IMG/VR virus record: IMGVR_UViG_3300037606_000271
Location: 1 to 53,304 of that record
Reading direction: 5' to 3' (one strand)
Origin: a virus
Taxonomy: Duplodnaviria > Caudoviricetes
DNA length: 53,304 nt
Part shown: positions 1,378-41,154 of the stretch, in pieces
How positions within the stretch are numbered: the first letter of the stretch is position 1
How the letters are laid out: each line of letters begins with the position of its first letter
Notes under the pieces: model-generated
Told to the model about the DNA's origin: nothing
Seen by the model: only the letters and a program-made list of their open reading frames with translations
Database searches by the model: none
Program-made: the position numbers and the translations under genes

Positions 1378-1434
1378 CAAGCAATAAAACTGTAGTAATT
1401 TCATTACAGTTCAATCTTCATTAAAACAAGTAAA

Positions 1435-12224: not shown

Positions 12225-12228
12225 TTAC

Positions 12229-14066: not shown

Positions 14067-14075
14067 AAAACTATA

Positions 14076-14873: not shown

Positions 14874-14915
14874 GCGAATTTTAACTTTTTTATTTATATA
14901 TTATAATATTATTTT

Positions 14916-15869: not shown

Positions 15870-15878
15870 AGGTAACTT

Positions 15879-17212: not shown

Positions 17213-17351
17213 CCTTTTAATTGTAATATGTATTATATTACTATCGGATTACGCCATGACTCATGGAATAGATTTACCTTTTAAAGTGATAACTGTTTTA
17301 GTGATAAGTAACGCTATAGGAAATATAATTGATAAAACTATCAGAAAATGA
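17193..17351 (+). CDS. Small two-TM membrane protein (52 aa)
   Basis: Manual translation MNQYTNNLLIVICIILLSDYAMTHGIDLPFKVITVLVISNAIGNIIDKTIRK; ATGA overlap with the next gene. Confidence 0.6.
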   Translation: MNQYTNNLLIVICIILLSDYAMTHGIDLPFKVITVLVISNAIGNIIDKTIRK

Positions 17352-18292: not shown

Positions 18293-18875
18293 TTATAAAG
18301 ACTTACAAACACCAATTGAAATTAGAAATGACACTACGTGGATTAACTTAACAGGAAGGTTTTTGTTACCACAGATTAAGTTATTAGATGAAACATTTAA
18401 TAACAATTATAATAAAACTAACTGGTTAGGATTTGGGTTATGTGATAGGTTATATGATAAATATAATGAATTTGACAATAAACTATTTATGCTTGCTTCT
18501 AACAAAAGTAGTCTTAAATATTGGCTTAATAATTATGAATATTATATTTATCAAGACGGAGAACTAAACAAAGTAATGATTATCATTGATTTACCAATTA
18601 ACAATAGAGATCAATTTTTTATTGGTGAATATTCTAAATTAGGCTATGAACCTAATATTATAGTAAAATTTATTAAATACAAAGGTAAAGAAAGTCTTTC
18701 ATCTTCTTGGTCAGTCATAAATAAAACAGAACAAGCCAGAGTAGCTTTTCAAGAAAAAGTTAATAAAGATTTTAACGTTAATGTAATAATTAGTGATGAA
18801 CAAGAATTTGAATACCCACCGGTCTTACCCAGAGAGATCTTTAACCTCAAAACTGAATTGGTTTTATCTCATTGA
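18282..18875 (+). CDS. Hypothetical protein (crAss-like replication module)
   Basis: 197 aa; FLLP and GEYSKL motifs; overlaps the exonuclease stop. Confidence 0.75.
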   Translation: MNFSYKDLQTPIEIRNDTTWINLTGRFLLPQIKLLDETFNNNYNKTNWLGFGLCDRLYDKYNEFDNKLFMLASNKSSLKYWLNNYEYYIYQDGELNKVMIIIDLPINNRDQFFIGEYSKLGYEPNIIVKFIKYKGKESLSSSWSVINKTEQARVAFQEKVNKDFNVNVIISDEQEFEYPPVLPREIFNLKTELVLSH

Positions 18876-19158
18876 ATTTGATCATGGAACTAGAAAGTGT
18901 TTAATGCTTACTAATGAAATTGATAAAGGTTGGGAAGAAATTGGGGAATACTATGATTACATAGAAGCAATAGTCTATGATGGACCTGTTGAATGGGTTC
19001 AACATATTCAAGATGATATTGCAGAACAGTTAGATGAATACGCTATTCTTGATTATAACTCTCCTTGCTTTTTTCAAGAAAATAAAGAAAAAGTATTAAA
19101 AACATTTAAAAAATCATTAACTTTACGTAATCATGAGTGGAATACATCACCAGATTGA
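18793..19158 (+). CDS. Hypothetical protein (start uncertain)
   Basis: 121-aa ORF; resembles the two downstream ORFs. Confidence 0.65.
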   Translation: MMNKNLNTHRSYPERSLTSKLNWFYLIEFDHGTRKCLMLTNEIDKGWEEIGEYYDYIEAIVYDGPVEWVQHIQDDIAEQLDEYAILDYNSPCFFQENKEKVLKTFKKSLTLRNHEWNTSPD

Positions 19159-19474
19159 GATTCCCTGTAAAAAGTGTTTTTATTTATTTGAATGTAACCT
19201 CAAAGATGTTGATAGACTTTTTATTACTTTTATATATGGAAACTACAAAGAACAATTAAGTACTTTAGAGTATAGAATGATTTTTCAAGTAGAATCAATA
19301 TCACCTAATAGTTGGAACGAAGACATTTTTAAAAGTCTTAGAAAAGATTTACTACCTTATGAAGTGGCCCATAAAGCTATGTTTTTTCCTATTTATAAAG
19401 AAAAGAATAAAAATGAAATTTGGTCTCATATTAGGACTAAAATACACAAACTTAATAAAGAATTTTTAGAATGA
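19133..19474 (+). CDS. Hypothetical protein
   Basis: 113-aa ORF in an overlapping chain. Confidence 0.7.
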   Translation: MSGIHHQIEIPCKKCFYLFECNLKDVDRLFITFIYGNYKEQLSTLEYRMIFQVESISPNSWNEDIFKSLRKDLLPYEVAHKAMFFPIYKEKNKNEIWSHIRTKIHKLNKEFLE

Positions 19475-19782
19475 TAAAAGATAACTGTTTCCTGGTAATT
19501 GAAGTTACGACCAGGAGACTGGTTTATTTTACTTTTATTATGACAGAAGAATATGATTTATTAATAGATACATTTGATTCTTGTGATGTAAGGGCACAAA
19601 TAATGTTTACTGGTCCACCTACATGGATTTATCATGTTTATGAAAGTATTCGTGAAATCAATGAAACATCAGAAGTAGATGTTAAAGAAGGTTTTCCTTT
19701 GTATAAAGCAGAAAGATTTAATCACATATGGCATGTAATTAAAACTAACGTAAATAAAGTAAATAAAGAATCTAATGATTGA
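19471..19782 (+). CDS. Hypothetical protein
   Basis: 103-aa ORF, ATGA overlap. Confidence 0.7.
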   Translation: MIKDNCFLVIEVTTRRLVYFTFIMTEEYDLLIDTFDSCDVRAQIMFTGPPTWIYHVYESIREINETSEVDVKEGFPLYKAERFNHIWHVIKTNVNKVNKESND

Positions 19783-20203
19783 TAAAAAACTACAAGATCA
19801 CATGAGTAAATCTCATGGGTTAAAATTATCTAATGATGAAATAGATATTTTATCTAATATAGTTATTGAAAAGTTGCAAAAAGAATTAGATAATAAATTT
19901 TACAGTTTTTTATCACTTGATGATGTAGTTCAAGTAGCTAAGATCATTGATAATTATGTACTAATGCTTGATAGAAAATTAATACAACGTCGTTGGTTTC
20001 GTCAAGCAGTAACGCAGCTAATTATAAGAAAATCACAAAAAGTTAGTAATCTTGTAGTTGTTGATGTAAAAGAGCCTTGTAAAGAAGTATATGGTTGGTA
20101 TCCTATTAAGTACAGTGAAGGATCAACTCAGTGGTTACTTGAAGGAGGTGAAGAAGCTTATAATAGAGCATTGGAAAAATGGAAAAAGAAGTTTTCAATT
20201 TAA
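19775..20203 (+). CDS. Hypothetical protein
   Basis: 142-aa ORF. Confidence 0.7.
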   Translation: MIDKKLQDHMSKSHGLKLSNDEIDILSNIVIEKLQKELDNKFYSFLSLDDVVQVAKIIDNYVLMLDRKLIQRRWFRQAVTQLIIRKSQKVSNLVVVDVKEPCKEVYGWYPIKYSEGSTQWLLEGGEEAYNRALEKWKKKFSI

Positions 20204-20215
20204 ATAATAATAAAT

Positions 20216-20398
20216 ATGACAGCTGAGCAACTAACCGAATACGCATATGAAAACTTTGAGAATCCATCTAAGGTACTTAAAGATGTAGTGCAACAAGTTA
20301 TAGACAAAAAAGGTATGATTTACAATGCTACTTTTAAAGAAGTTGTACAAATGTATTCCCAGTTACTGGAGAAATTACTAACCAAGTATAAAGAATAA
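20216..20398 (+). CDS. Small hypothetical protein
   Basis: 60-aa helical ORF. Confidence 0.65.
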   Translation: MTAEQLTEYAYENFENPSKVLKDVVQQVIDKKGMIYNATFKEVVQMYSQLLEKLLTKYKE

Positions 20399-20706
20399 TG
20401 CAAAGATTAAATTTTATAATACCTATATATAATGTTAAAGTAAAAGTAAGAGTTGGTAATATAGAAAAGATTATTGAAAAATATGATGCAAATATAGAAG
20501 CTCCTTGCGCAGCATTTCAACAATCTTATGAAGGTTTTGAGTTAATAGCTTTACCAAAAGATTATGATTCTTATTTGAGTCATGAGTGTGGTCATACTGC
20601 TTGTGCAGTAGTTAGACATTTAGGTATGAAAGTTTCTAGTAAAACAGAAGAGTTTATTTTTTATTTACAAGATTATTTAATACAATACATAAAAGAAAAC
20701 TTATGA
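20398..20706 (+). CDS. Minimal zincin-like (HExxH) protein
   Basis: LSHECGH motif followed by EEFIFY (candidate third-ligand Glu). Confidence 0.7.
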   Translation: MQRLNFIIPIYNVKVKVRVGNIEKIIEKYDANIEAPCAAFQQSYEGFELIALPKDYDSYLSHECGHTACAVVRHLGMKVSSKTEEFIFYLQDYLIQYIKENL

Positions 20707-20876
20707 AATTTATAATGATTAAAAATGAAGGAGAAGGTTTTTACACTGTTGAACTTACTCACGCAACTAATTTAGATAATACAACCAAGATTTTTGAAGA
20801 TAAACCAAGTTTAGACAAGTTTATTGTGATTATGAGGAAGAAGGGCTATACTGTAGTAAATGATTCATGGGTGTAA
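20703..20876 (+). CDS. Small hypothetical protein (57 aa)
   Basis: Manual translation MKFIMIKNEGEGFYTVEL...; ATGA overlap. Confidence 0.6.
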   Translation: MKFIMIKNEGEGFYTVELTHATNLDNTTKIFEDKPSLDKFIVIMRKKGYTVVNDSWV

Positions 20877-21571: not shown

Positions 21572-23836
21572 ATGATTTTTAAAGATGTTAATTCAGAGGC
21601 AACGAAAGTTGGCAATATTAAATCTAATTCAGTATCAATTGACGCTGCTAATTTAGATTTTATTATTAATATTATAAGTAGTGGATTGTACAGTAAACCT
21701 ATTGAGTCTTTTGTTAGAGAGATTGTTTCCAATGCATGGGATGCTCATGTAGAGGCTGGTAATAATAGTCCTATAGCTCTTGAATTAGGCTTAAATACAG
21801 AAGGACAATATTTCTGTAAGATACAAGATTTTGGAGTAGGCCTTTCACCTGAAAGATTTAATAGTGTTTATAAAAATATTGGCAGTTCTACTAAAAGAGG
21901 TACTAATGGTCAAATAGGTGGTTTTGGTATTGGAAGATTTAGTGCATTAAGCTACAGCAATGTAGTTCGGATTATTTCTGTGTTTGATGGAACTGAATAC
22001 ATGTATCTAATGTATAAAGACAACAACAAACTAAGTATTGATTTACTTTATTCCAAACCTACTGAATTACCTAACGGTGTAAGTGTTGAAATAGATGTAA
22101 AAAACCACGATGTTGATAAGTTTGTTGAAGCAATTAAAATTCAATTAAGCTATTTTGATAATTTAGTGGTTATAGAATCTATCCCAAATAAACCATATGG
22201 TATTGAAAATAAGTTTAATGACTCTAATATTAAAAAGTATAAGAACTTTTGCGCCAATACTTTTGATAGTCACATTAACCGAACAGTAAGTATTCTTTTA
22301 GGTAAAGTTCAATACCCGTTAAGATTTACTAGTTTAAATAAGTTTTACGATAGCTTTATTAAAAATTATCCAATTGCGCTTAATTTTGAAATTGGGGATT
22401 TAGGTGTTACACCTAATAGGGAAGAACTTTTATATAATGCTGATTCTATAGGTAAAATTGAAACTGCATTAGATGCTTCTATATTAGAAATTGAAAATTT
22501 ATTTGCAACTCAAAATAAGAAAAATTACACTGACTTTAAGGAATTTGCTGAAAGCATTGGCGTTAGTGAAAAAGTTGTTTTAGTGTCAAATGACACTGAT
22601 TTAGTTAGTATTAAAAAGAGTAATATGCAAGAGTATAAAATGCTTAATGGTGTAAAATATAACACCGCTCAATTCAGTAATCATTTAGATACTTTTAGTT
22701 CTTTAAATTTATCAAAAAATTCTTACGCTTTACTCAATAATAAATTGATTAATAAAAATGGATATAATTTAAACACAACTCATGCGGCAAATAGAAATGG
22801 TCTTTATGTTTGTAATGTAGCTAAATTATCTAATCATAGTAAATCTTATTTAAGAGAAACTTTTTCTAATAATACTATTTTTATTAAGCCCATTAAGTCT
22901 TATGAAGTATTCAAGTTTATTATTAAAGCAATTAAAAAGAATAGTCGCGATTTAAAAACTTTTCAAAGAAATGATACGCATAATCCATTAATTGTAAAAG
23001 AAATTATTAAATATTATGCTGAAGCTTACAATAAATTACCCAGATTTGATGATAGTCAAGTTCCTGTCCAGTTTATAGTTGACAGAAAAGCAAAATTAAA
23101 AAATAGAAAAGTTATTAACGTTAAGTCTAAAGATTACTGGAAACAGTATATTTCTATTAATGTAGTTACATCAAACAGATATGGTAATTACGCAGGAATG
23201 GATACTGAAAATTATAAATTAGGTGATCTTAAAAAGGAATTTAAGAAACTTTCTGTTTATACTTTTAAAGGAGATACTAGGACATCAGATATGTGTGTAG
23301 TTTTTAAAAAGGTAAACTTTATTGAAGTTGCTCCTACAAAAATGAAGTTAATAGAAAATTTAGATAACTTTGTAAAACTAGATGATTTTATGGATAAGAA
23401 ATATAAAGCAATCAGAGATTTAGGTACAGTAATGTATATTAAGGATCATTTTCCAGAATTGGGTAAATTGTATTCAATGAAAAACATTAACCTAATTTCA
23501 AATAATTTATATACTGTAATTACAAGTCTTCATGAATTTGTTTCTGCTACTGCTAACAACTACGATGATAACGCTGTAGCCAATGAAGTATATGAATATT
23601 GTAAAGAACAAAACGCATTTAATGAAGAGATTAAAGGATTGTACACAAAGCATAAAAGACATTTAGATAATGCAAAAAGTCTTATACCTTTTGTTTATAC
23701 TACAGGTTTAGGGCATGACATTCATGGAAGTCTGCTCAATCTTGTTACAGATTATGTATTAGCAAAAAAGCTTTTTACTCCAAGTATGGAAGCAGTTAAT
23801 AGACTTAAGAAAGAAACTATTTTTAACAATAAATAA
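21572..23836 (+). CDS. rIIA: rIIA-like protein with N-terminal GHKL ATPase domain
   Basis: LYSKPIESFVREIVSNAWDAH, IQDFGVGLS, GSSTKR...IGGFGIG, TPNREEL; adjacent to an rIIB-like gene. Confidence 0.88.
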   Translation: MIFKDVNSEATKVGNIKSNSVSIDAANLDFIINIISSGLYSKPIESFVREIVSNAWDAHVEAGNNSPIALELGLNTEGQYFCKIQDFGVGLSPERFNSVYKNIGSSTKRGTNGQIGGFGIGRFSALSYSNVVRIISVFDGTEYMYLMYKDNNKLSIDLLYSKPTELPNGVSVEIDVKNHDVDKFVEAIKIQLSYFDNLVVIESIPNKPYGIENKFNDSNIKKYKNFCANTFDSHINRTVSILLGKVQYPLRFTSLNKFYDSFIKNYPIALNFEIGDLGVTPNREELLYNADSIGKIETALDASILEIENLFATQNKKNYTDFKEFAESIGVSEKVVLVSNDTDLVSIKKSNMQEYKMLNGVKYNTAQFSNHLDTFSSLNLSKNSYALLNNKLINKNGYNLNTTHAANRNGLYVCNVAKLSNHSKSYLRETFSNNTIFIKPIKSYEVFKFIIKAIKKNSRDLKTFQRNDTHNPLIVKEIIKYYAEAYNKLPRFDDSQVPVQFIVDRKAKLKNRKVINVKSKDYWKQYISINVVTSNRYGNYAGMDTENYKLGDLKKEFKKLSVYTFKGDTRTSDMCVVFKKVNFIEVAPTKMKLIENLDNFVKLDDFMDKKYKAIRDLGTVMYIKDHFPELGKLYSMKNINLISNNLYTVITSLHEFVSATANNYDDNAVANEVYEYCKEQNAFNEEIKGLYTKHKRHLDNAKSLIPFVYTTGLGHDIHGSLLNLVTDYVLAKKLFTPSMEAVNRLKKETIFNNK

Positions 23837-23842
23837 TATATT

Positions 23843-25078
23843 ATGACAATTATTCGTTTAGACAATCACCTTACAGTTGTATTTAGTGATAATAAATCTT
23901 TAAGCACAAACACATGTACTGATGATTTATTGTGTTTAGTAAATAAGCACAGAGACGATGAGGAACTTGTGAAGACTTTGTTAGTCCCAGGATATTTTAA
24001 GAAAAAAGAAGAATATGAATTGAAAAAAGATTTAATTAGTGATTACGCTAATTCTAAGTTACTTACTCTTTCCGGTCAAAGCATTTACATTACAAGTGTA
24101 TCTGAGCTAACTGTACCAGAAGACCTTGCTTTGGCCATTCTAAATGCAGAGAAAGAAGGTAATGATGAATTAGTTAATAGCTACATTAACTTTTGGACAT
24201 TGGTTTCTATTAACCCTGACAGCCGTGCTAGAACCAATTTATTTTGGTTTTTACAGAAGTATGGCATGCAAATCTCAGCATCAGGTTTGTTTGTTGCTTA
24301 TCGCAATGTAGTTCTTAAAAAAGATGGTAATGAGATTTCAGAAGCATTTGCTAAAGCTATTAGTAAGTGTTTTACTAAAGTAAAATATACTTACAAGAAA
24401 AAGCCATCTAATTATGTAGTAATTAAAACTAATGATGGTTACGAGCTTGCTAAGAAAGGTGAGTATGACAATGTTACTCTTCAAGATCTTTATACTAAGT
24501 TAGGTGAAGAGAATGCACCTATCTATACAGATGCTTACACTGAAAGCTTTACCATTAAAATTGGTGTTCCTGTCATGATTGATCGCAAAGATTGTGATCC
24601 TAATCAAAACAACACTTGTTCTAAAGGTTTGCATGTAGCTGGAAAAGATTGGTTAGACTCTAACTATTTTGGTAAAATTTCACTTAAAGTATTAGTGAAT
24701 CCAGCTGATGTAGTAGCTGTACCACCTAGTGATGGTTATGGTAAAATGAGAGTATGTGCATACTACCCTGTTGAAATTCTTGACCGAGATGAGGATGGAA
24801 ATTTGATTAACGAACATGGTATTGATGGTTTTGAAGATGATTTTATTGACATGATTTCATACAGTGCTGAAGTTAACAATCAAGATGATGGAAAGTATTC
24901 TGTAAATATTCCAGAAATGCCAGAATTGAACCGTAATAATATTCTTAATCGTCTAAATTTTAACATTAAGGATAAAGTTTCGATTCATGAAGATTATGAC
25001 ACTCAAGAAGATGAAGAAGATTATGAGTATGAAGGAGAAGATGATGGTTACGGATGCGATGCATATGATTGGGAATAA
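23843..25078 (+). CDS. rIIB: rIIB-like protein
   Basis: GLFVAYRNV, TCSKGLHVAG, VLVNPADVVAVP...KMRVCAY; acidic tail. Confidence 0.88.
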   Translation: MTIIRLDNHLTVVFSDNKSLSTNTCTDDLLCLVNKHRDDEELVKTLLVPGYFKKKEEYELKKDLISDYANSKLLTLSGQSIYITSVSELTVPEDLALAILNAEKEGNDELVNSYINFWTLVSINPDSRARTNLFWFLQKYGMQISASGLFVAYRNVVLKKDGNEISEAFAKAISKCFTKVKYTYKKKPSNYVVIKTNDGYELAKKGEYDNVTLQDLYTKLGEENAPIYTDAYTESFTIKIGVPVMIDRKDCDPNQNNTCSKGLHVAGKDWLDSNYFGKISLKVLVNPADVVAVPPSDGYGKMRVCAYYPVEILDRDEDGNLINEHGIDGFEDDFIDMISYSAEVNNQDDGKYSVNIPEMPELNRNNILNRLNFNIKDKVSIHEDYDTQEDEEDYEYEGEDDGYGCDAYDWE

Positions 25079-31200: not shown

Positions 31201-32047
31201 TTAACAAAGAATCTACTTGGTGACTAAGATCAAAATCTTTAAACTCAGAAGACTTAATTTCATATTGTACATTGCCTTTAAAATCATCACTCAACTTTAA
31301 CTCTTTGTTTTTAATTTTATCTTTTAAATCATTAGCAAAATCTTCTATTAACTTGTTGTCAAAAAATTTCAGGGCTTTTCTAATTAATGTTCTTATAGTT
31401 CTTAATATTCTGGAAGATGTAGATTCCATATCATTATCTAATAACACATCTCTAATTAATTTATCAACAACTTCTTTTCTAGCTAACTGATCTGTGTACC
31501 CTGGAACCTTAATATATTTATTATATATTTCATTAAATTCAGGATGTTGATCTACAATAGATAATATTCTTTTGAATGTAGGATCTTCTAACATAGTAGA
31601 CGTCATCATGTGAGACATTTCTTCTAATTGAGTAGCTTTATCTCCATTATTCCAAGCTATAATTTTATTAATAGGATCTGCTACACCTTGTACATCTAAA
31701 GCATAACCATTTTGCTGTTCAAATTGTTTTGAGTAAGTTGATACAGCTCCCCTTTTAACACCCATACTACTAAGTACAGACCATAAATTATCTATTACTA
31801 AATTAGAATTATCTAATACGTTTATTTTATAATCAGGTTCGCCATTCATGTCTTTAGGTAAATCCTCATTAGAAGATAATTTGCTCCATAGTTTGATAGA
31901 TTTTTCTTCAAATGTACCTGTAATTTTACTACTAAATTCTTTATTGTTATCTATAGTAAATTTAGACTTTTCAAAAAGTAAAGATGGTGCCCCGTTGGGG
32001 GCACTCACCTCTAATTTACCATTATTGTATTTTATTTGACAGCTCAT
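28244..32047 (-). CDS. Large virion cargo/ejection protein (1267 aa) with degenerate N-terminal zincin-like domain
   Basis: APNGAPSLL motif, EEMSH in place of HExxH, C-terminal hydrophobic helices; directly downstream of the virion RNAP as in crAss-like phages. Confidence 0.8.
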   Translation of the reverse strand: MSCQIKYNNGKLEVSAPNGAPSLLFEKSKFTIDNNKEFSSKITGTFEEKSIKLWSKLSSNEDLPKDMNGEPDYKINVLDNSNLVIDNLWSVLSSMGVKRGAVSTYSKQFEQQNGYALDVQGVADPINKIIAWNNGDKATQLEEMSHMMTSTMLEDPTFKRILSIVDQHPEFNEIYNKYIKVPGYTDQLARKEVVDKLIRDVLLDNDMESTSSRILRTIRTLIRKALKFFDNKLIEDFANDLKDKIKNKELKLSDDFKGNVQYEIKSSEFKDFDLSHQVDSLLKELNEAKKNQTNKTIKKEITKKIEQLELPQSAGNYKTATVNALNSTSLALDDALDILNTLDKSENKTEEIVDALRRAKEKVAQFNLFIEDINSEKSVRRMPDRVKTEVSDIVSKKARYEGLIRNKEIELSERLMSPFTKLMTHFKEGEYKKLLEEVKNISGIQAWIQSLANLNDDVLKLFDLYYKRSRQIVINKSKDEAEELLRLRSKIEDFNDLDFIQKDAEGNISRYFVNPENINFAEYEITRKKAMREIRVSLRLSENYDERKKQLGEDPELSKMYRENKDNWFKNNQERLPNLDQVIKNQIEQSVRDIFSVSKSDLVEVLYKFISSKGYVIDNYSTREFLKTYDKKLSLGEQEKIDTVIYGVGSYILDNSFKNNGDLIFTKDLATPRKDLYEDLSYDKLPDSKKSYLDQVLKIKAKSSKLPLNPAHLYKLPQLTKSLAQLLKEGNVKGLQQNFMDKFRFNDEEIVYDSNTRTLPVYFINEIENINDMSTDIHMLTNSFGYMANHYIEMRNIESSILMMEGVINKRRILDSPGLIGGNQAERITDYIDANIYGKFKKNEGKTGKILDFLGAYTSLLGLGYNIYSPPANVLQAYSSIAQEKAAKIYDKESFAKADSFYTTHLMESLRAFDNPSVDSTLTGLGRLFNVRDEFMQQVIKESPNESVAIKRILSSPYALNNIGEHFGAYKMALTIIANKKVLYKGEKVSLLDHIDHKDFSSSISEDVTELDGSPVDVDAISLKIHSVNQRLFGIYNKVDQSRMQHFALGRMLKTFRKFIISPGNRRYGKLEYNYQEGLDDDGNTIKQEGMYRSMLRIYQDAKQLAREDKEMLLSGAFKEKWAKMDDVQRQNYLRIRRELATVLGAFTIYLLLTNIVDEDDEDLANQLLAFTAYQANRHITEMSFFFNPVQTLEILRSPAAAVSAIEKFITFPVVLDPIQFFTEGNPFRKYQDGSYYIGKKTIDIIPIVKGIRNATNIMELYNLSSR

Positions 32048-35000
32048 TAATTACATTTTTTATTATTAGGATTCTCTTTATTAACATCTTCTACTTTGAC
32101 ATCAGTAGTTTTAGCTTTCTTTTTTACTTTTAGTTTAACTCGTGTAATTATTTCTTTTTCTAAATTGAATAATTTAAAATGCTTTCCTTGAACCATGTCA
32201 GTTTTACTAGCTTCAAACCTGAAAGCTATTTCACTAAATTTAATATCATAATTAATGTCACCATTGTTCATTTTTCTCTTTACGTAAATATCTCCATTGT
32301 TAGAATCATAATAATAATCTACATAACCATCAGGACCTTCTTTAGGTAGTCTAGCTATATAACTAGCATTTGCATTATTAGCTAAATGTTGCATTAAAAA
32401 AGTACTTATCATTAATTGATTATCGTAAGAAGATTCTCCATGTTCTTCAGACAAACTTAATTTAATACTGTTACTTTCATCTGAATAATAACCTAAATCA
32501 GCAAAAGCTTGCTGAGGGATTAACTTAGTATATCCAAATGGAGAGTAACCTAATCCATCTAAGTACAAAGCGTACCTAGCTAAATCTTGTACTAATTTAG
32601 GATCTTCTAAATATAAATAACTCATCATATCTTCTTTCATGTGTTCTTCTTCCGCAATCTCATTATTGTTAGACTTATAAAACATAAATTCTTGTGTACC
32701 TTCTTTATCTTTTTGAATAATAAAATCATTTAATAATTCACTATACTCAGGATGTTTAGAAAATCTTTCAATAATACCTTCTGTAATGCTTGTTTCATCA
32801 CCTGTTCCACTTACAAAAGCATTAAAAAACGCTTTATCTTCATTATTAAGAGTAGCTACAAAAGTTTTAAAGTCGTGAAGTATAATTTCTATTTCTCTTC
32901 CAGTAAGTTGATTGCCAGTAACCTTAGATTTAGCATTAGATATATGGTATATCATATTAAAGTAAACTCCTCTATTGTATGCAGGTATGCCTAAATTTTC
33001 CATGACTACCATCATGACGTCTTTTATTTTATTACCATCTTTAACTACTGATTTAGTAGAACGACTAAGGTGATCTTTAATAACTTCTCTAGCTGTATTA
33101 GCTTTTGTATTGTCATCAAGATCAATTAATAACTTAGTTAAATAATAATAAGGTTTAGTATCATCTAATAATAATTCTACAGCTCCTTCAAAAGCGTTTG
33201 GATCATTAATAGCGTCAATAATTTTAAGAATCATGGATATAGATTCTCCGTCAGAAGAACCAATACCATCTTCTGTGGATTTAGTAGCAACAGTTAATTT
33301 TCGCATATATTCACCATATTCTATATATCTACTAAAAGTAGTCATTACATCAAAAGCTTCTTTTTTATTATTCATAATCCATTCTTTAGGATCAGATATA
33401 CCATCTTGAGAAGATTTTAATAAATCACCCTTTTCAAAGTTAACTACAGATTTAACTGCTATTCTCTTTTTTTCTTTATCTGTAGCATCTCTTGGATCTC
33501 CATTATCATCTGTCATAATAAGATCCATCATGTCACCAAAAGCTTTGTCATTAGACATTCTTGTACCTCCATCAAATTTAAATCTTTTTGAATAGTAACG
33601 TAATGCTGGGTGGTTAATAAAATACATTGCAGTATTAAAATCTACACCAGCTGACAACATCGCAATTAATACATTAACAGTAGAAAAGTTAAGATTTAAT
33701 TTACCTGCGTGAGGATTTTTGGTGTTGTCTACAATAGCAGCTAACCAAAGAGATATATTTTGAGATCTAAATCTATAATTAAGCTCATCTAATATAATAC
33801 CTCGATTTGTAAAATCATTATATAAACCACTTTTATTTTCTTTTCTACCTTCCATCAAATTAAACTTAAAACCTACTTCATACGTTTCTGGTGTACCATC
33901 TTCTTTTAAAATAGCATTACCTTCTTCATCTTTAGATGGTTGAGAAGCAATTTTAAGTGTTTTGGCTTGTTGAAAAATACTAATAGTACTGTTAGCATTA
34001 GCTAATGGACCTACTAAAGATGTACCATCAAGAGCATTACTTCTTGATTCAACACTTCTTGAAGGCATACCCATCGTACCAATATTATCGTCAATGCCTA
34101 ATTTAATTTCTAAATCATTAAATATTCTATCAAAAATAGAAGATGGATTTAGTGTTTCAAATGCAGCATCAGAAGATGACATTAAAGCCCTGTAAGCATC
34201 AATTAACTGATTCTGTCTACCTACTTTACTATCTCCTCTAGGAACATGAAACGGCTCATCTTTGAGAACTTCTGTATAAGCTGTCATAATATTTTGAGTA
34301 GCAAGCTGTTCTCTTTTAGTTAAATCTTTAGATGCATCTTCTTGATATGTAGTGTTTAATTCGTAAATATATTTTAATAAAGGGTAATATCCCTTATTAG
34401 AATTTTTAGGTGCTAACATATCTAATTGAAACACATACATAGGGTTATCTCGAATCAATTCTTCTAATGTCATAAATCCTCTAACATCCCCAGCTTTCTT
34501 AGCGTTTTCTTTTATTTTATCAATAACTTTATCCATCATTTTAGGATCATCGTAGCCACGAGAAACAAATGAATAAAAGAAACCATACATTTTATCAATG
34601 TCAAAATCTAGTCCAGCTATGTCTGTAATCTCAGTAGGTAAGTAAACGGCAGAACCTATAGACGTAGGGATAAATCCTATAATCTTAATTGGTGCTGTAG
34701 AATACTTAGCTTCGTTTGGCGTTCTCCATATTAAACCTTTAAATACATCTTCTAGTTCTGGATTCTTTTTTATTAAATCTTCAATAGCTTTTCTATCAAG
34801 AGGTACATTAGGTTTAACATACTTGTATAATCTAGAATCATGAATAGGCATTAAAGCTTCTATGTAATCTATATTTTCTAATTTATTACCTTTACTATCT
34901 TCTTTAAACACAATCTTAGGTCTGGTATCTTCTGTAAATCCAGCAGATGATGCATTAACTAAACCTACACCTTGAAGTTTTTTAGGATTAGTAACTTGCT

Positions 35001-38000
35001 TACTGTAAATTGAATTAATAATTTGCTTAATCTTATGTGAATAAGCTGGAAAATCAAGAGGTGCTAAAGTTCTTAATTCATTATTTTCATCAGTAATAAT
35101 TTGAAGAGCTTCTAAGTAATTATTAGATAATCCTCTTTTAGAAACTTCTGCTTTTATTGTAGCTATAATACCTTTAAAATCTTTTACTTGATTAGTAACT
35201 TCAGCATAAGCTTCAATAATTTCTTGAATTTCTAATCTATTAATTTTTTCTAATAATTTAGCTCCAGTTAAAGTTTGAGAGCCTTGTATTTTAAGATTAC
35301 CTTTTTTATCTAATGAAGTGTATTTGGCTATTGTGTAAGATGCTTCAGGGTTTACATTAGCTGCCATATTCTTTCCTGCTTGTCTTGACAAAGACTTTTT
35401 ATTATCAAGAAAACCAGAAGGTACGTCATTTTGCTTACCGTAATCTTCATTTTTTACTGTTAATGCTGAAGGATTATATCTAGCAAATTGAGTTGGTTTT
35501 TTATCTTCATAAGTAAACTCTTTATTTAAGCCTTTAACAGAATCCCTCATACTTACAGAGATACCTTTTAACATAGTCAGTCTAGTTAAAGGATTAATAG
35601 CTCCATCAACTACTTCTTTAGCGTCATAGGATAGCCCTACAGGGATAATTCCAAGTTTGGTAGGTCTAATACCATATTGGTTAAATAATAGCATAGAATA
35701 GATGTTAAGCTGGTTCTCGTGCTTTTTTCTATTACTTAATTCTCCTTGTTTATAAGCAGTATCATATTTAAGCTTTTTAGTACCTGAATGAACAGCTACA
35801 AACCTTCCATCTACAATCTCATTATCATTGTTAACTTTCATTGATTTAAGATCATAAATACTAAAATTACCTTCTTTATCGTAGGTCAATAAATCAACTG
35901 TACCAGCAATACCCATTTTATCATTATGTAATAAAATTCCATTAGCTACTACTGTTTCTCCATTAGCTTCTAACTTAGCTTTTAATTCTTTTAAAGATTC
36001 TAAAAAAGATTTTACTAAAGATCTATTTGCTAAATTATAACTATTTAAATCTTTTAAATCATCACTAAAAAAATCTCTTACTAAGTTGTCTAAAGAAGTA
36101 CCTAATTTAGACGAAGACCTGAGATTAGTTTTAGTTCTGGCTAAAGACTCTAAATAACTATTTACTTTATCCACATTTTTAATTTTATAATTAGAAATAC
36201 TTTTAAAGCTGTTGTTGAAATAATCATCTAATAACCTAGTTAATTCATTAATATCTTCATTAGAAGATTTATAATCATTAGCTGCTTTTTGCGCAGGAGA
36301 CAATTGAAAACTGGAAGTTGCTCTACCATATAATTTACCTTTAGATTCAACATCATATGTATTGTTGTTTCCTGGGTCAGGTGTAGCTTCAGAAACGTCT
36401 TGAATTATATTAATTACAGAAGAAGGATTGTTAAACTTTCTACTAATAGTATTCAAATCTTTAGCTTGTAAAAACGAATCTGTGAGTACTTGTAAAACTT
36501 CTTTATCTGATAATAATTCAAAAATAAAATTAACAAATTTATTCCACCAATTAAGAGCTTCTCCTTTTTGAACTACTACTTGTTCTCCAATAGCTTGTAC
36601 AAGAGCTTCTTCACTACCCCAACGTTTAAGTCCTTCTTGTACAATAGGAGTATTTCTGAACATTGCAATGTAGTGATGAGCATACTCATGTGGTAAAGTA
36701 TCTTGTTTTTGATTTACAGCGTCAATTAATACTTTTTTAGCATCAATTATAGCTTGACCTACAATTTTACCACTTTCATTTTGATTAAAAACATTTTGCT
36801 GATCAGATTCAGGCTTTTGATTAGATTTTTGAATATCCTCAAAATTAAAATGTCGTAAACCTACGTTTTGAGAAAACTTATCATTATTAGTATTAAATGG
36901 GATGTAATTAGCAAAATCTCTAAGATCTTTTGCTCTACCCATTTTTAATTTAGCTTTAAAAATACTAATCCAATCTTGAAAACCATCATTATTTATAACA
37001 CCTAGTCGATTGTCTTTAGTTAAAAATAAATCAATGTCATAACCCCCTTCAATGCTACCAGTCCAAGTGAATGTTTCATTTTTAGTTCCTCCAAAACTTC
37101 GTACTTTTTTTAAGCTAGGATATTTCTTTTTAATCGCTTTAAACCATTCTGAATTATAAATTAAATTATCACTTATTCCTGTATATTTTTTATATATACC
37201 TGAAACAATCTGATCTCTCAAGTCTGGTACATAAGAAAACTCTTTTTCAGCAGCGCTTATTTCAGCATTTCTATTCTGCTGAATCAACGATAAATCAGCT
37301 TGTATTAAACTATAAGGGACAGTAAAATCTAAATCATGTAAAGTTTCTTTTTCTGATCTGTATATAGTACCTTGTTTACGCAAAGACAAACTACCTGTCA
37401 ATAAAATACCTAATTCTTGAAAATCCTTAACTATAGAATCAGCTTTAGGGTCTTCATTAATAGTTTGTTGATATTCTGTAAGTTGCTGATCACTGCTTAA
37501 AACTGTACCAAATTTCTTAAACTCACTATTAATTACATCTGAAGCAATATCATCTAATAAATCATTTACCTCAGTACTGTTTAATTTATTAGAACCTAGC
37601 AATTCTTTTATAAATCTTTTTAACCTATTAAGCTGATATTTAATTTGCTTTTCTAATTTAGAATTACCTTGTATAGACCAATATTCTGCCGATCTTCCTA
37701 ACTCTACTTTAGAAGGATTCTCAAAGTTATTTTCAATAGCAGCAGATATATAATCTACAACTATTAATTCTTTAATTTTATAATCATTTAAATCTGGACT
37801 TCTTTTCTTATACCTATCATATGCTTTAGCATATCCTTGTATGTTTTCAATTGAACTAACAAGATCAGTTCTTATTTTATTCTTTTTCCCTAGCATAGAA
37901 TACGCTACATAAGCTACTTCTTTAGTTAGTAATCTTAAAGGGTCGCTACTAGATTTTAATAATATAGTTTTATAAATTAAATCAGTAGTAGCTAATGCGT

Positions 38001-41000
38001 TAAATCCTGTTAAAGTTCTTAACTCATCAACTGTTTTAACATTAAAATTTAATTTTGTTAAAAAATCATTAAGCTTATCAAGTCTATTAATTACTTGATT
38101 AAATACGTCAGCATCATAAGAAGCTAAAATCTCGTCAACATATTCCAGGTTAATGTCAGGAAAAAGTTCTTTAAGTTTATTTCTTAATTTATTATCTAAA
38201 TCATAATCAAATTTAGAGCTATTAAATTTTAAACTAGTAGTAACAATATTTTGATCTAAATCTAATATACCACCTTGCTCAGCTTTAAGAGCTTCATTAG
38301 AAGAAAAAGTATCTATATACTTTCTATCATGATTATAAGATCTTTCTTTTTCAAAATTAGGAATAGTTTTTACAGAGTTTTCAGTAAACTCATACCCCAT
38401 TCTTTCTAAAAATAATCTGTATAAAGGATTGTAATAAGTATTAGGTTCTCCGTTTTTAAGAAATCTCATTCCATGCATTGGGTGCATTACCAACTCAGAG
38501 TCTTTTTTTTGAAAAGGCTTAACTTGAGTACCTTCTATCATAGAAAAATGAAATCCTTTTAAAGGATTAAAAAAAGATTCTTTTTGATTAGGAGTTAACA
38601 TTTGAAAATTAAACTCACCCTGTAACATTTTTAAATAAACAAATTCTTTAGTGTCATTCCATTCACCAAGACCTATTAAAATCTGTTTATACCTAAATGG
38701 ATCAATGTAAGATTGACCATCTGTTAAAGAAGAAGATTTAAAGATTTCTGTAATACCATCATACCTACCATCAATGCCAGCATAATGTTCTTCTAACTTT
38801 CTAATATGTTCTTGAAACCCTTCAGTAATCCCTTCAATGTCTTTAAAGCCTTGAATTACATAATTCTCTGATACAGTAGTTACATCACCAGAATAAGGAG
38901 AAGTATAATATGCTCCTACAAACAAAGGGGTTGTTGGTGACCATATTTGTTTAGTACGTTTATCGTAATTAGCTAATGTAGCTAATACATCTTTAGCTTG
39001 AATTTCTCTCTCTGATAAATTAGAAGTATCTCCTTTAAAAGCTTTTTCATAAAAGTTTGGGTGACCATTAAATGTAATAGCAGCAGATGGATATAGCACA
39101 GCATAGTTGTAAACAAAATCTCTAATTTCTTTTCTACCATAATTTTTTAGTGCTTCTCCTTCTTCTGTAGGTACAACAGTCCGCTTTAATACACCAGTCT
39201 TTTTTCTAAGATATTCATGAACTTTAAACACTCCTTCATCAATAAGGTATTGCTCATAATCCTTAGCTCTTTTAACCATTATATCTTTAATGAGCACTTT
39301 TAAATTAGTGTCACTCAAGTTTTCACCTATGTAAGCTTGTAGTTCAGGAAATATATGCAAATTAGAACCTAAAGATCCGTTATTTATTACACTTAATTCG
39401 TTTTTAGCAAGTTTTAACAAATCATCAATTATAGATTCATTTGGTGTGTACAATAAGGTACCATCTTCTAATCTATCTGTTTGACCATTCTTAATAAACT
39501 TTCTGTTGTATCTGATAGCTGTCATAGAGCCACTATCAGAGTGAATAGGTAATTCTATAGCTCTACGCTCATTAAACATAATTAGCTGGTTTATAACTAA
39601 TTGCTGCTTGTTCATATCAGAATAAGCAATTAGTTTTCTTTTTCCAGGAAGTCTAATACCATTAACTACTAGATAAGCAGCTTGCTTATTTGCTATAGCT
39701 TCTATTGTTTTGTTTTCATCATATAAAGGATCTTCTTTGTATATGTTTTCACCATTTTGTATTCTACTAATTTGTCTAGTAGTAAAATTAGAATTGTTAA
39801 ATTGATATACTTTTTCTCCTTTAGAATTTAAATGTGAGTTGTTCATTATACTTAATGAATTTTCACTTAACATTTGAGTGTAAAGTAAAAACGCAGAAGA
39901 AGGTTTACCATTAACTCCTAATAAATCACCATTAAAATTACCATCTTCGTCTTTTGATTTCAAAGTATTGTAAAGACCAAATACTTTTTCTTTAAAATCT
40001 TCTGTTGAAGGGTCACTACCTAAAGTGTAAGTAAACAATCCAAACTCTTCTAACGCTTCAGCTAATGCTTCACCATCTTTATCAAAAGCTTTATCTAACT
40101 TACCAATTAAAGAGTTTCTTTGTGCTCCATCGTATGTGCCATTAGCTATTAGTTTACCTTCTCTAGCTGTTCTTAACACATCAGAATAAATAGATTTATT
40201 ATTATTTTCATAATTAGATGGATTCATTTCACGAATCATCTCTCCATTTTTATTTGTAATTACTGTGTCAAAATAATCATATTTATAATTACTTGCAATT
40301 TTAGCCCATATAAGAGTTTGAAACTTTTGAGCTTCATTACTAGTCATATCTTCTGGAAACAATTCTGCAATTAAAGGATCTTTAGTTCTTAACTCATTTA
40401 TTTTTCTCATCATATTTCTAGATGTTCCACTATTACCTAATAGTTGAATCAGTCTTTTATACGCATAAGAAAATGTATGTACTTCTGGTAACCCCAGAAA
40501 ACCTTTAGCATCCACTAAGTTCCCTTTACTATCAAACTTTTTACGTTTAATGTTGTTTAAAGCAGATTTAAGTTCTTCAGATAAAGATTCGTATTGAGAA
40601 ATAGTGTTAATATCTTTCTGCCATTTTTCTACAGTAGTTTCTGAAGTCTGATCTGTAGTTAGTTCTAAATTAACGTAATACCCTCTTTGCTTAAAATCTT
40701 TAAGTATTTCAATAACTAAAGAATTTTGAAACACATCATTGTTTTCAAAAGATGCTGTGTAACGCAAAGCTTTAATAACATGAGCTAATGTTTGTTGACT
40801 ATCTGGCTCAGAAAGTTTTTGTATTTCTGTACCAAGCATACCAATTACAGTATTAGGATTTTCTTTACTTGGTATAGCAGTTAACGCATTCTTTGTTATA
40901 TCCGGGTTAAAAAACATTTCAGCAAACAACTCTTTCTTTTTTGTAGAACTAGTTAAACCCCGTTTAGAAACTTCTTGTTCAAATAACTGAGTAGCAAATT

Positions 41001-41154
41001 GCACTAAAGTTACTTTCATTTTATGAATTTGATTAGGACGTAACTTGGCGTTATTAGTTAACACATCCATTGTTAACTGTTTAATCTTTCTTCTAAGTTC
41101 TACTCTGTTAATAGCTTTAATTATTCCGTTTTTTGTTTTTACAAAACAGTACAT
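32047..41154 (-). CDS. Virion-packaged single-chain two-barrel RNA polymerase (phi14:2 gp66-like) with a large multi-domain insertion
   Basis: Catalytic GLDFDIDK (DFDID at 34594-34608) preceded by WRTPNEAKYS; TDGQSY, PLKG and VDNTKNP motifs. Confidence 0.9.
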   Translation of the reverse strand: MYCFVKTKNGIIKAINRVELRRKIKQLTMDVLTNNAKLRPNQIHKMKVTLVQFATQLFEQEVSKRGLTSSTKKKELFAEMFFNPDITKNALTAIPSKENPNTVIGMLGTEIQKLSEPDSQQTLAHVIKALRYTASFENNDVFQNSLVIEILKDFKQRGYYVNLELTTDQTSETTVEKWQKDINTISQYESLSEELKSALNNIKRKKFDSKGNLVDAKGFLGLPEVHTFSYAYKRLIQLLGNSGTSRNMMRKINELRTKDPLIAELFPEDMTSNEAQKFQTLIWAKIASNYKYDYFDTVITNKNGEMIREMNPSNYENNNKSIYSDVLRTAREGKLIANGTYDGAQRNSLIGKLDKAFDKDGEALAEALEEFGLFTYTLGSDPSTEDFKEKVFGLYNTLKSKDEDGNFNGDLLGVNGKPSSAFLLYTQMLSENSLSIMNNSHLNSKGEKVYQFNNSNFTTRQISRIQNGENIYKEDPLYDENKTIEAIANKQAAYLVVNGIRLPGKRKLIAYSDMNKQQLVINQLIMFNERRAIELPIHSDSGSMTAIRYNRKFIKNGQTDRLEDGTLLYTPNESIIDDLLKLAKNELSVINNGSLGSNLHIFPELQAYIGENLSDTNLKVLIKDIMVKRAKDYEQYLIDEGVFKVHEYLRKKTGVLKRTVVPTEEGEALKNYGRKEIRDFVYNYAVLYPSAAITFNGHPNFYEKAFKGDTSNLSEREIQAKDVLATLANYDKRTKQIWSPTTPLFVGAYYTSPYSGDVTTVSENYVIQGFKDIEGITEGFQEHIRKLEEHYAGIDGRYDGITEIFKSSSLTDGQSYIDPFRYKQILIGLGEWNDTKEFVYLKMLQGEFNFQMLTPNQKESFFNPLKGFHFSMIEGTQVKPFQKKDSELVMHPMHGMRFLKNGEPNTYYNPLYRLFLERMGYEFTENSVKTIPNFEKERSYNHDRKYIDTFSSNEALKAEQGGILDLDQNIVTTSLKFNSSKFDYDLDNKLRNKLKELFPDINLEYVDEILASYDADVFNQVINRLDKLNDFLTKLNFNVKTVDELRTLTGFNALATTDLIYKTILLKSSSDPLRLLTKEVAYVAYSMLGKKNKIRTDLVSSIENIQGYAKAYDRYKKRSPDLNDYKIKELIVVDYISAAIENNFENPSKVELGRSAEYWSIQGNSKLEKQIKYQLNRLKRFIKELLGSNKLNSTEVNDLLDDIASDVINSEFKKFGTVLSSDQQLTEYQQTINEDPKADSIVKDFQELGILLTGSLSLRKQGTIYRSEKETLHDLDFTVPYSLIQADLSLIQQNRNAEISAAEKEFSYVPDLRDQIVSGIYKKYTGISDNLIYNSEWFKAIKKKYPSLKKVRSFGGTKNETFTWTGSIEGGYDIDLFLTKDNRLGVINNDGFQDWISIFKAKLKMGRAKDLRDFANYIPFNTNNDKFSQNVGLRHFNFEDIQKSNQKPESDQQNVFNQNESGKIVGQAIIDAKKVLIDAVNQKQDTLPHEYAHHYIAMFRNTPIVQEGLKRWGSEEALVQAIGEQVVVQKGEALNWWNKFVNFIFELLSDKEVLQVLTDSFLQAKDLNTISRKFNNPSSVINIIQDVSEATPDPGNNNTYDVESKGKLYGRATSSFQLSPAQKAANDYKSSNEDINELTRLLDDYFNNSFKSISNYKIKNVDKVNSYLESLARTKTNLRSSSKLGTSLDNLVRDFFSDDLKDLNSYNLANRSLVKSFLESLKELKAKLEANGETVVANGILLHNDKMGIAGTVDLLTYDKEGNFSIYDLKSMKVNNDNEIVDGRFVAVHSGTKKLKYDTAYKQGELSNRKKHENQLNIYSMLLFNQYGIRPTKLGIIPVGLSYDAKEVVDGAINPLTRLTMLKGISVSMRDSVKGLNKEFTYEDKKPTQFARYNPSALTVKNEDYGKQNDVPSGFLDNKKSLSRQAGKNMAANVNPEASYTIAKYTSLDKKGNLKIQGSQTLTGAKLLEKINRLEIQEIIEAYAEVTNQVKDFKGIIATIKAEVSKRGLSNNYLEALQIITDENNELRTLAPLDFPAYSHKIKQIINSIYSKQVTNPKKLQGVGLVNASSAGFTEDTRPKIVFKEDSKGNKLENIDYIEALMPIHDSRLYKYVKPNVPLDRKAIEDLIKKNPELEDVFKGLIWRTPNEAKYSTAPIKIIGFIPTSIGSAVYLPTEITDIAGLDFDIDKMYGFFYSFVSRGYDDPKMMDKVIDKIKENAKKAGDVRGFMTLEELIRDNPMYVFQLDMLAPKNSNKGYYPLLKYIYELNTTYQEDASKDLTKREQLATQNIMTAYTEVLKDEPFHVPRGDSKVGRQNQLIDAYRALMSSSDAAFETLNPSSIFDRIFNDLEIKLGIDDNIGTMGMPSRSVESRSNALDGTSLVGPLANANSTISIFQQAKTLKIASQPSKDEEGNAILKEDGTPETYEVGFKFNLMEGRKENKSGLYNDFTNRGIILDELNYRFRSQNISLWLAAIVDNTKNPHAGKLNLNFSTVNVLIAMLSAGVDFNTAMYFINHPALRYYSKRFKFDGGTRMSNDKAFGDMMDLIMTDDNGDPRDATDKEKKRIAVKSVVNFEKGDLLKSSQDGISDPKEWIMNNKKEAFDVMTTFSRYIEYGEYMRKLTVATKSTEDGIGSSDGESISMILKIIDAINDPNAFEGAVELLLDDTKPYYYLTKLLIDLDDNTKANTAREVIKDHLSRSTKSVVKDGNKIKDVMMVVMENLGIPAYNRGVYFNMIYHISNAKSKVTGNQLTGREIEIILHDFKTFVATLNNEDKAFFNAFVSGTGDETSITEGIIERFSKHPEYSELLNDFIIQKDKEGTQEFMFYKSNNNEIAEEEHMKEDMMSYLYLEDPKLVQDLARYALYLDGLGYSPFGYTKLIPQQAFADLGYYSDESNSIKLSLSEEHGESSYDNQLMISTFLMQHLANNANASYIARLPKEGPDGYVDYYYDSNNGDIYVKRKMNNGDINYDIKFSEIAFRFEASKTDMVQGKHFKLFNLEKEIITRVKLKVKKKAKTTDVKVEDVNKENPNNKKCN

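Follow-up and report, generated by a model that had tools for sequence, protein, structure and literature searches.

A predicted Pol-beta-fold nucleotidyltransferase in a cassette inserted into a crAss-like phage's RNA polymerase

INTRODUCTION

Of the viruses that infect Bacteroidota in the gut and the sea, crAss-like phages are some of the most abundant. No function has been assigned to most of the mass of the giant proteins in their 'transcription block'. Here we analyse a nucleotidyltransferase (NTase) domain of predicted Pol-beta fold that lies within a 3035-amino-acid (aa) protein, P0001, encoded by IMG/VR record IMGVR_UViG_3300037606_000271 (Caudoviricetes). The window, by which we mean the whole stretch of DNA analysed, is a 53.3-kb (53,304-nucleotide) fragment of this virus record with a GC content of ~29%.

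The described systems closest to this locus are of two kinds, RNA polymerases (RNAPs) like the carrier and NTases like the domain. Among the former, gp66 of phage phi14:2 (PDB 6VR4) is a virion component in which two double-psi beta-barrels (DPBBs) are joined by a Connector, residues 1095-1238, according to the available text of a preprint. In the text accessible from Yutin 2021 the crAss transcription block consists of several large proteins with multiple domains, and PD-(D/E)xK nucleases are mentioned, and in that of a further crAss paper (PMC12386605) the nucleotidyltransferase discussed is a CCA tRNA nucleotidyltransferase gene.

The nearest NTases belong to DUF1814 (PF08843), which holds the toxin-antitoxin and abortive-infection toxins MenT1, MenT3/TglT and AbiEii. 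Excerpts of Dy 2014 define it by hG[GS]-x15-DhD, by an Arg within motif II, by a motif III centred on Lys (K173, R180) and by a +DxxD motif IV (D192). MenT3 adds pyrimidines to tRNA 3′ ends (PMC7450476, in part), and AbiEii is a GTP-binding protein whose NTase activity is specific for pyrimidines (excerpts of Dy 2014 and of a 2026 preprint). T39 of MenT1 and S78 of MenT3, two residues before the first Asp, form an auto-phosphorylation switch, as stated in the sections of PMC11375011 at hand. NTases also occur in polyvalent proteins: the relevant passages of Iyer 2017 (PMC5512222) describe a minimal domain made up of four strands plus three helices, related to NTox45 and fused to ArdC-N, and state that it is restricted to conjugative elements of Firmicutes and does not occur in polyvalent proteins of the phage type.

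RESULTS

Motifs and conservation of the NTase domain

An earlier note on this DNA, made from the sequence alone, had proposed a Pol-beta-superfamily NTase at positions 36850-37500. All four motifs lie there, in the frame of P0001 (Table 1). Conservation was counted in 142 full-length domain copies from 138 proteins. Seven residues, S1255, R1266, D1274, D1276, D1375, F1377 and K1402, are invariant in all 142, and others nearly so: G1254 and K1409 (141 each), D1413 (140), and H1273, R1407 and D1410 (139 each). The domains are otherwise 25-50% identical. The five signature positions (G, S, D, D, D) are jointly kept in 141 of the 142, which bears out the hG[GS]...DxD...D signature as the note read it, except in one respect. 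The first Asp of YDIDLF, D1373, is V, L, A or I in most members, so this strand gives one carboxylate (D1375) and no second DxD. Given this conservation within the family, the motifs are far above chance, and by their pattern the domain is apparently catalytically active.

Predicted fold

Two AlphaFold2 models were made, a two-domain model of aa 960-1470 from 42 sequences (predicted local distance difference test, pLDDT, 84.0; predicted template modelling score, pTM, 0.82) and an NTase-only model of aa 1190-1470 from 49 sequences (pLDDT 80.3, pTM 0.74). DSSP gives the expected order of strand, GS helix, short extra strand, DxD strand, three long inserted helices, three strands and two helices, with D1375 on the last of the three strands and K1402 and KDxxD on the final two helices. 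In two-domain model numbering, motif I covers strand 292-294 and helix 295-302, motif II strand 315-320, the D1375 strand 413-420, and motif III/IV helices 436-446 and 449-457. These placements, together with the ~150 residues aligned to MenT1, lend indirect support to a clustering of the three Asp residues in space, the condition that the earlier note had set.

With the NTase-only model as Foldseek query, all 39 matches listed are Pol-beta-fold NTases (best 4ok0_B, E 0.012), with probabilities up to 0.97 for TM1012 and MenT1. VIA-align, which is independent of Foldseek, put MenT1 first among 48,161 chains (Z 8.7 over 149 of 195 residues; root-mean-square deviation, rmsd, 3.9), followed by TglT/MenT3 (7.8), ANT(2'') (7.4), LnuA (7.1), Megavirus poly(A) synthase (7.1), TM1012 (6.4) and a JHP933-type protein (6.4); 13 of the top 16 rows are NTases. 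A second VIA-align search returned NTases in 49 of 50 rows, led by MenT1 (Z 8.9), MenT3 (8.1) and ANT(2'')-Ia (8.1). The ranges are thus Z 8.6-8.9 for MenT1 (149-152 of 189-195 residues, rmsd 3.3-3.9), 7.8-8.1 for MenT3/TglT, 7.4-8.1 for ANT(2'')-Ia, 7.1-7.9 for LnuA, 6.4-6.8 for TM1012 and 6.4-6.6 for the JHP933 type. The Pol-beta NTase proposed in the earlier note is therefore the fold predicted, with match lists made up almost exclusively of such enzymes.

The AbiEi antitoxin of Streptococcus agalactiae (6y8q_A, chain residues 55-194) also matches the NTase models, at Z 5.4-5.7, which is odd for an antitoxin. Among the viral structures of BFVD there is one match at E ≤ 1e-3, a 180-aa protein without a name; the rest are weak and mostly uncharacterised. 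Neither phmmer nor an hmmsearch profile found anything relevant to the NTase domain among PDB sequences, and PF18765 matches one of 42 members weakly (E 0.02).

Profile-profile tests (hhalign) were run locally against families collected from genomes. GS and DxD of the family fall in register with those of family-X polymerases (PolX), MNT and AbiEii. Against 11 independently collected PolX palms P is 2.3e-4 over 59 columns, with the preceding helix, GS and DxD in register, and against 14 palms, including the three usable of four found by pattern, P is 7.3e-5. As positive controls, MNT against PolX gave P 3.8e-4, AbiEii against MNT 0.07 and AbiEii against PolX 0.19. The family against AbiEii gave P 0.07-0.1, one alignment having motifs I, II and III/IV in register, a score reached by two of 120 block-shuffled templates. 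The C-terminal half of the NTase gave P 0.76 against PolX, so the third-Asp strand is not alignable to PolX. Readings of HDLDF as an HD phosphohydrolase or HAD (DxDxT) motif were rejected, since the motif lies on a beta-strand after an hG[GS] strand-helix unit and the fold matches are NTases.

Comparison with known NTases

The domain is most like DUF1814, as the earlier note's label 'AbiEii-like' had it. MenT1 and MenT3 are the best structural matches, with ~150 residues aligned, and in both families hG[GS] and DhD stand further apart than usual, an Arg precedes DxD, and a Lys motif and (K/R)DxxD lie towards the C-terminus. The note's K...R.KD..D helix pair corresponds to DUF1814 motifs III/IV: F-x-A-K1402-L, R1407 and K1409-D1410-x-x-D1413 align to aEK...sR.rD.yD of AbiEii.

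The differences are several. From GS to DxD the phage family has a spacing of 18 where DUF1814 has 15; from the Arg to the first Asp it has eight residues (R1266-D1274) where AbiEii has four (R63-D67); and from the Lys to KDxxD it is compressed, with eight residues between K1402 and D1410 compared with K173 to D192. The phage family also has a three-helix insertion of ~65 residues. The phospho-acceptor Ser/Thr of MenT proteins is missing, the corresponding position 1272 being hydrophobic in 140 of 142 copies (L in 105, I in 23, V in 7 and F in 5). DUF1814 proteins are free-standing and come with an antitoxin, whereas the phage domain sits in giant proteins beside a zincin-like domain and no antitoxin gene was seen. 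PF08843 gave no match at E ≤ 1 in Pfam scans of the domain and 42 members. We therefore regard the family as a new one with the Pol-beta NTase fold, closest in its likely mode of action to DUF1814; it is not filed there because it fails the family hidden Markov model (HMM), has the compressed C-terminal spacing, lacks the phospho-acceptor and was never seen free-standing.

The antibiotic NTases ANT(2'')-Ia and LnuA, together with TM1012 and JHP933, have the same compact fold (Z 6.4-8.1 over 125-145 residues) but are small, free-standing proteins with small-molecule or unknown substrates and no sequence-level relation to the family. The NTase of Iyer 2017 is likewise embedded in a multi-domain injected polyvalent protein with zincin-like peptidase domains; the phage family is larger, DUF1814-like and phage-borne. 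P0001 shows the polyvalent trait itself, with RNAP, two tentative zincin-like domains, NTase and PD-(D/E)xK in one polypeptide.

The PolX palm gives the best profile-profile score, and the strand YR.x.KETLHDLDF is nearly identical to YRRSKETLHDLDF of PolX, but the alignment is confined to the helix-GS-DxD segment and contains a 9-residue gap, the PolX fingers and thumb show no likeness, and Z is 4.7-5.5. A scan of bacterial genomes returned only four PolX genes, via the ETLHDLDF word and with matches of ~70 residues; as homologues of the domain they were rejected, the likeness being at motif level. On contigs of Verrucomicrobiota metagenome-assembled genomes (L009-L012) the PolX-PHP polymerase strand YRRSKETLHDLDF is nearly identical to the phage YRSEKETLHDLDF. 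The strand likeness may have arisen by convergence on one active-site strand, or it may be left over from common descent.

The carrier protein and the site of insertion

P0001 is, judged from homology, a crAss-like virion RNAP. Its aa 1866-2507 match the annotated putative RNAP of cr112_1 (a Kehishuvirus) with 25% identity (E 2e-35), and its aa 727-896 match aa 1142-1307 of the same protein (E 5e-5). A profile of four RNAPs matches phi14:2 gp66 (6vr4_A) at E 1.5e-49 over chain positions 870-2028; P0001 has the DFDxD loop and gp66 homology across both barrels. In tblastn searches P0001 matched 106 phage records, by name mostly uncultured, Bacteroides, Flavobacterium and Cellulophaga phages, and in 15 matches listed the match falls on annotated crAss RNAPs.

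Comparison with RNAPs that have no insert defines the cassette, and it confirms that the NTase lies within an insert in the RNAP, as the earlier note had said. The nearest RNAP, P0163 (2383 aa), is collinear with P0001 at 42-45% identity: aa 3-970 of P0001 correspond to aa 4-977 of P0163 (45% identity), and aa 1634-3025 to aa 995-2376. The C-terminal border of the cassette, at about aa 1591, is set by a PDPGNN motif common to both proteins. At the insertion site P0163 has ~24 aa and P0164 and cr112_1 have 30-45 aa, compared with ~620 aa in P0001, and HMMs of the three cassette domains found no match in P0163 or P0164 at E ≤ 1.

On the gp66 chain, whose index is gp66 numbering plus 14 as judged from the DFDID position, the flanking blocks map as TDGQSY...QKKDSE (~975-1055) before the insert and NEDYGKQ.D.P after it. 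The insertion site thus corresponds to chain positions ~1056-1095, which places the insert in the link that joins the two barrels, immediately ahead of the Connector. Like gp66, P0001 is a single-chain two-barrel RNAP with a DFDID loop; gp66 has a short link where P0001 has ~900 extra residues, the cassette plus the PD-(D/E)xK domain. This nuclease domain is common to P0001 and P0163 and absent from P0164 and cr112_1, so the inter-barrel link has been used for insertions at least twice.

A 20-nucleotide imperfect direct repeat (36248-36267 and 38285-38304; 18 of 20 identical, in frame, SSNE encoded in both copies) was considered as a recombination scar at the insert borders. It was rejected because the C-terminal border is ~40 codons away and two-copy repeats are expected by chance in DNA of this GC content (29%). 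The base composition of the insert is no different from that of its flanks.

The other cassette domains

The helical domain that precedes the NTase, here called 'pre', is co-conserved with it in most relatives. By sequence comparison 'pre' is a paralogue of the HExxH domain that has lost the metal-binding histidines: hhalign of 'pre' against the HExxH family gives P 2.4e-5 and a probability of 76%, and the motif is KEVAY in P0001, xE(V/T/A)AY in close relatives, and EExxH or a true HExxH in other members. The 'pre' part of the two-domain model has weak zincin matches, to PprI (Z 6.9), lethal-factor-type proteins (6.1-6.7) and Pro-Pro endopeptidases (PPEP, 5.8-5.9). 'Pre' was also tried as a counterpart of the PolX DNA-binding N-terminus and rejected (P 0.25). 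The HExxH domain itself is a putative gluzincin-type metallopeptidase from its motif, with a weak SprT-like match in Pfam (E 0.14). We keep the zincin label tentative, as it draws on the weak structural matches of 'pre' (Z 5.8-6.9), the HExxH motif and this one hit. The PD-(D/E)xK domain matches PF12705 (E 0.0046), phrog_298 exonuclease (2.4e-6) and TIGR00372 cas4 (2e-4), and in PADLOC DruK (3e-6) and Cas4 (5e-5).

Distribution of the family

When 1.84 billion representatives were scanned with HMMER, 233 proteins matched at E ≤ 1e-3; of these, 93 pass E ≤ 1e-10 and 22 pass E ≤ 1e-30. The family is almost wholly confined to giant phage proteins, usually at the N-terminus of a giant open reading frame (ORF) beside the RNAP gene. 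Architecture was counted in the 160 representatives listed, excluding the window's own protein. The domain was confirmed by HMM in 158, of which 98 are at least 1500 aa long; among these long carriers it starts within the first 700 residues in 71, and a detectable RNAP core is present in the same polypeptide in seven. Five proteins have two domain copies, and P0004 also has two. ART-PolyVal (PF18760) was found in three of the 12 carriers scanned (P0020, P0021 and P0111).

A profile search among proteins of 108-531 aa found three, on short contigs (798-8210 bases) and likely fragments, and no free-standing form. There was no tblastn match of the domain in 50,697 GenBank phage records, and a profile of the domain found no copy in cr112_1. 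In four of seven IMG/VR loci (L002, L003, L007 and L008) the giant ORF with the cassette comes after the DFDxD ORF, either next to it or with one ORF between; in two (L004 and L006) the neighbour could not be judged. In L005, on a complete 89-kb genome with terminal repeats (G106; locus from 9251-20758 onward), the cassette heads a 5489-aa frame with DFDxD ~3155 residues in, cassette and RNAP being fused there in another way. The cassette is present in a single copy in every complete relative. A cassette nested inside the RNAP was seen only in this window.

Table 1. Features of the window discussed in the text (aa numbering is that of P0001)
Feature	Position	Strand	Basis or remark
3035-aa ORF (P0001), predicted virion RNAP with insert	32047..41154	-	single frame; RNAP homology
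RNAP N-terminal part, aa 1-970, including first (beta-like) DPBB region	38245..41154	-	P0163 and cr112_1 alignment
Inserted cassette, ~aa 971-1591 (degenerate zincin-like, tentative; NTase; HExxH)	36382..38244	-	alignment to RNAPs without insert
'pre' domain, aa 971-1189, helical	37588..38244	-	read as degenerate HExxH paralogue; co-conserved with NTase
Predicted Pol-beta-fold NTase domain, aa 1190-1460 (folded core ~1230-1440)	36775..37587	-	models, fold searches, conservation
Motif I LLTGSLSL, aa 1251-1258, G1254 and S1255	37381..37404	-	strand beta-1 end/helix start
Motif II LHDLDF, aa 1272-1277, D1274 and D1276	37324..37341	-	strand; R1266 8 residues upstream
Third-carboxylate strand YDIDLF, aa 1372-1377, D1375 and F1377	37024..37041	-	
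Motif III/IV equivalent AKLKMGRAKDLRD, aa 1401-1413, K1402, R1407, K1409-D1410-x-x-D1413	36916..36954	-	two helices
HExxH domain, aa 1461-1591	36382..36774	-	HEYAH aa 1489-1493 (36673-36690 = HEYAHH); conserved Glu residues downstream
PD-(D/E)xK (Cas4/RecB-like) nuclease domain, ~aa 1592-1866	35557..36381	-	profile matches
RNAP catalytic aspartate loop DFDIDK, aa 2183-2188	34591..34608	-	aligned to DFDVD (cr112_1) and DFDID (gp66)
tRNA-Arg(TCT) gene	1305-1378	+	
DNA polymerase pieces	5438-6559 and 8879-9337 (within 5438-9337)	+	at least 2 pieces, both phrog_1252
GIY-YIG/homing-endonuclease ORFs between polymerase pieces	6569-7519 and 8110-8829	+	library matches
rIIA-like and rIIB-like genes	21572-25078	+	phrog_612 1.6e-64; phrog_609 1.1e-26

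Other genes of the window

The plus-strand half of the window carries replication and host-takeover genes (primase, helicase, Sak4-like protein, exonuclease VIII, rIIA/rIIB, MazG and a DNA polymerase in pieces). The endonuclease ORFs that split the polymerase suggest an intron- or intein-type interruption. In the minus-strand half, giant ORFs of 2150, 3035 and 1267 aa come after the gene of a virion structural protein. CheckV gives the record (G000) a completeness of 27%, which implies a genome near 200 kb, while complete cassette-bearing relatives are 89-105 kb; either the estimate is off or the window's lineage is much larger than its relatives.

DISCUSSION

Proposed function

The explanation that we favour, with somewhat better than even confidence, is that the domain is an intact Pol-beta NTase of a new DUF1814-like family, forming the core of a mobile cassette that was inserted into the RNAP, and that it transfers nucleoside monophosphates (NMPs) to a macromolecular acceptor. 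The cassette (zincin-like domain, NTase and often HExxH) would be mobile: in most related crAss-like phages it heads a giant virion-block protein encoded beside the RNAP, and in this phage it would have entered the RNAP, at a point between the Connector and the first DPBB barrel. Nucleoside triphosphate (NTP) would be held by G1254/S1255, R1266, K1402, R1407 and K1409-D1410-x-x-D1413, and Mg2+ by D1274, D1276 and D1375. The NMP would then pass to the hydroxyl of a macromolecular acceptor, most likely an RNA 3′ end, tRNA-like as for MenT, in the infected cell after the polypeptide has been ejected with the DNA. The NTase is probably an injected effector, on the ground that its carrier is homologous to the virion-packaged gp66 RNAP. 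That the acceptor is an RNA 3′ end we favour by reasoning from the nearest relatives (MenT and AbiEii), and on its own this assignment is tentative, falling some way short of an even chance.

Several results weigh against this explanation. No PDB entry reached E ≤ 1e-3 in Foldseek with either model, and VIA-align's own note states that best Z scores of 7-8 are common for models without a clear match, so that Z 8-9 is barely above that level; the fold call accordingly rests on the uniform match list and the motif agreement and not on single scores. The inserted helices, ~65 residues, interrupt the fold between the DxD strand and the third Asp. No Pfam, PHROG, NCBIfam or PADLOC model matches the NTase domain, which leaves the family currently unannotated, and PF08843 run against the whole record returned 0 candidates while control genomes were matched. 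Since ANT(2'') and LnuA are on a par with the MenT proteins, the acceptor cannot be chosen from structure. Finally, a toxin-like block of tRNA charging is not obviously useful for a phage that needs host translation.

The matches to ANT(2'') and LnuA are the ground for one alternative, that the NTase acts on a small hydroxyl compound, as those enzymes do, or makes or caps a nucleotide signal and so interferes with nucleotide-based immunity of the host. The antibiotic enzymes score at Z 7.4-8.1 and 7.1-7.9, and CdnC (Z 5.0) and a cGAS-like receptor (Z 4.3) also appear. The C-terminal motifs, though, fit the DUF1814 set and not the antibiotic NTases, the CD-NTase-type matches are weak, and a 270-residue domain with large helical additions and an obligatory partner domain would suggest a macromolecular partner; we consider this alternative improbable. 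A protein acceptor is also unlikely, if slightly less so: the NTase would AMPylate, UMPylate or GMPylate Ser, Thr or Tyr of a host protein, the phage RNAP or another cargo protein. Protein NMPylation is proposed for Pol-beta NTases of polyvalent proteins in the passages of Iyer 2017 cited above, the domain travels with protein-directed domains (zincin-like, and ART-PolyVal in P0020, P0021 and P0111), and MenT relatives can transfer phosphate to their own Ser/Thr, as the sections of PMC11375011 at hand report. The NTase in those passages is nevertheless of a different family (minimal four-strand, tied to ArdC-N, in Firmicute elements), and no protein NMPylase is among the top structural matches.

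The domain lies within the RNAP in this phage and within the transcription gene block in others, a setting that would fit a cis-acting RNAP accessory, one that tails early transcripts or, like PolX, fills or extends DNA ends with the adjacent PD-(D/E)xK nuclease. The PolX palm score (P 2.3e-4) with the near-identical YR..KETLHDLDF strand points the same way, as do Megavirus poly(A) synthase (Z 7.1) and the terminal uridylyltransferases, poly(A) polymerase and CCA enzymes (Z 4.5-5.5). Yet 91 of the 98 long carriers have no detectable RNAP core in the same polypeptide, 'pre' is unlike the PolX DNA-binding N-terminus (P 0.25), PolX and Pol beta/lambda reach only Z 4.7-5.5, and the four first PolX rows were found via a pattern from the phage family, though a repeat of the test left them out; such a role has a low probability. 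That the NTase is catalytically dead, a structural domain, spacer, or packaging or ejection scaffold, would have a precedent within the cassette in 'pre', which lost its HExxH, but it is very improbable indeed, since metal- and NTP-binding positions are invariant or nearly so across 142 otherwise divergent domains.

A further proposal concerns the peptidase. Excerpts of Iyer 2017 argue that polyvalent proteins are cleaved into functional units by their zincin peptidase; by analogy, and as speculation, cleavage of P0001 would release the NTase and leave the RNAP divided between its barrels. Extended to a self-releasing payload, HExxH would cut the cassette borders once the protein has been ejected, a MenT-like NTase would edit host or phage RNA 3′ ends, and the RNAP halves, with one DPBB barrel apiece, would reassemble like the beta/beta' subunits of cellular RNAPs, the inter-barrel site being a tolerated or exploited split point and the giant-protein cassette being ancestral and trans-acting. 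We regard this full scheme as doubtful, something of a long shot.

Significance

No NTase domain in crAss-like giant proteins is described in the literature searched, although figures or supplements (e.g. of Iyer 2017, or the Yutin 2018/2021 tables) may label it. If the favoured explanation of an intact DUF1814-like NTase holds, a recurrent block of these proteins (233 cluster representatives) would be given a concrete chemistry, Mg-dependent NMP transfer, and would be seen to travel with zincin-like domains as a cassette. If the domain is MenT/AbiEii-like in function, these phages would inject an enzyme of the type that serves bacteria as a toxin against phages or in abortive infection, and the phage enzyme would be without the phospho-switch through which antitoxins keep the bacterial enzymes silent. 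The insertion also shows that a single-chain RNAP has a permissive site between its barrels, which bears on how far two-barrel polymerases tolerate splitting and fusion.

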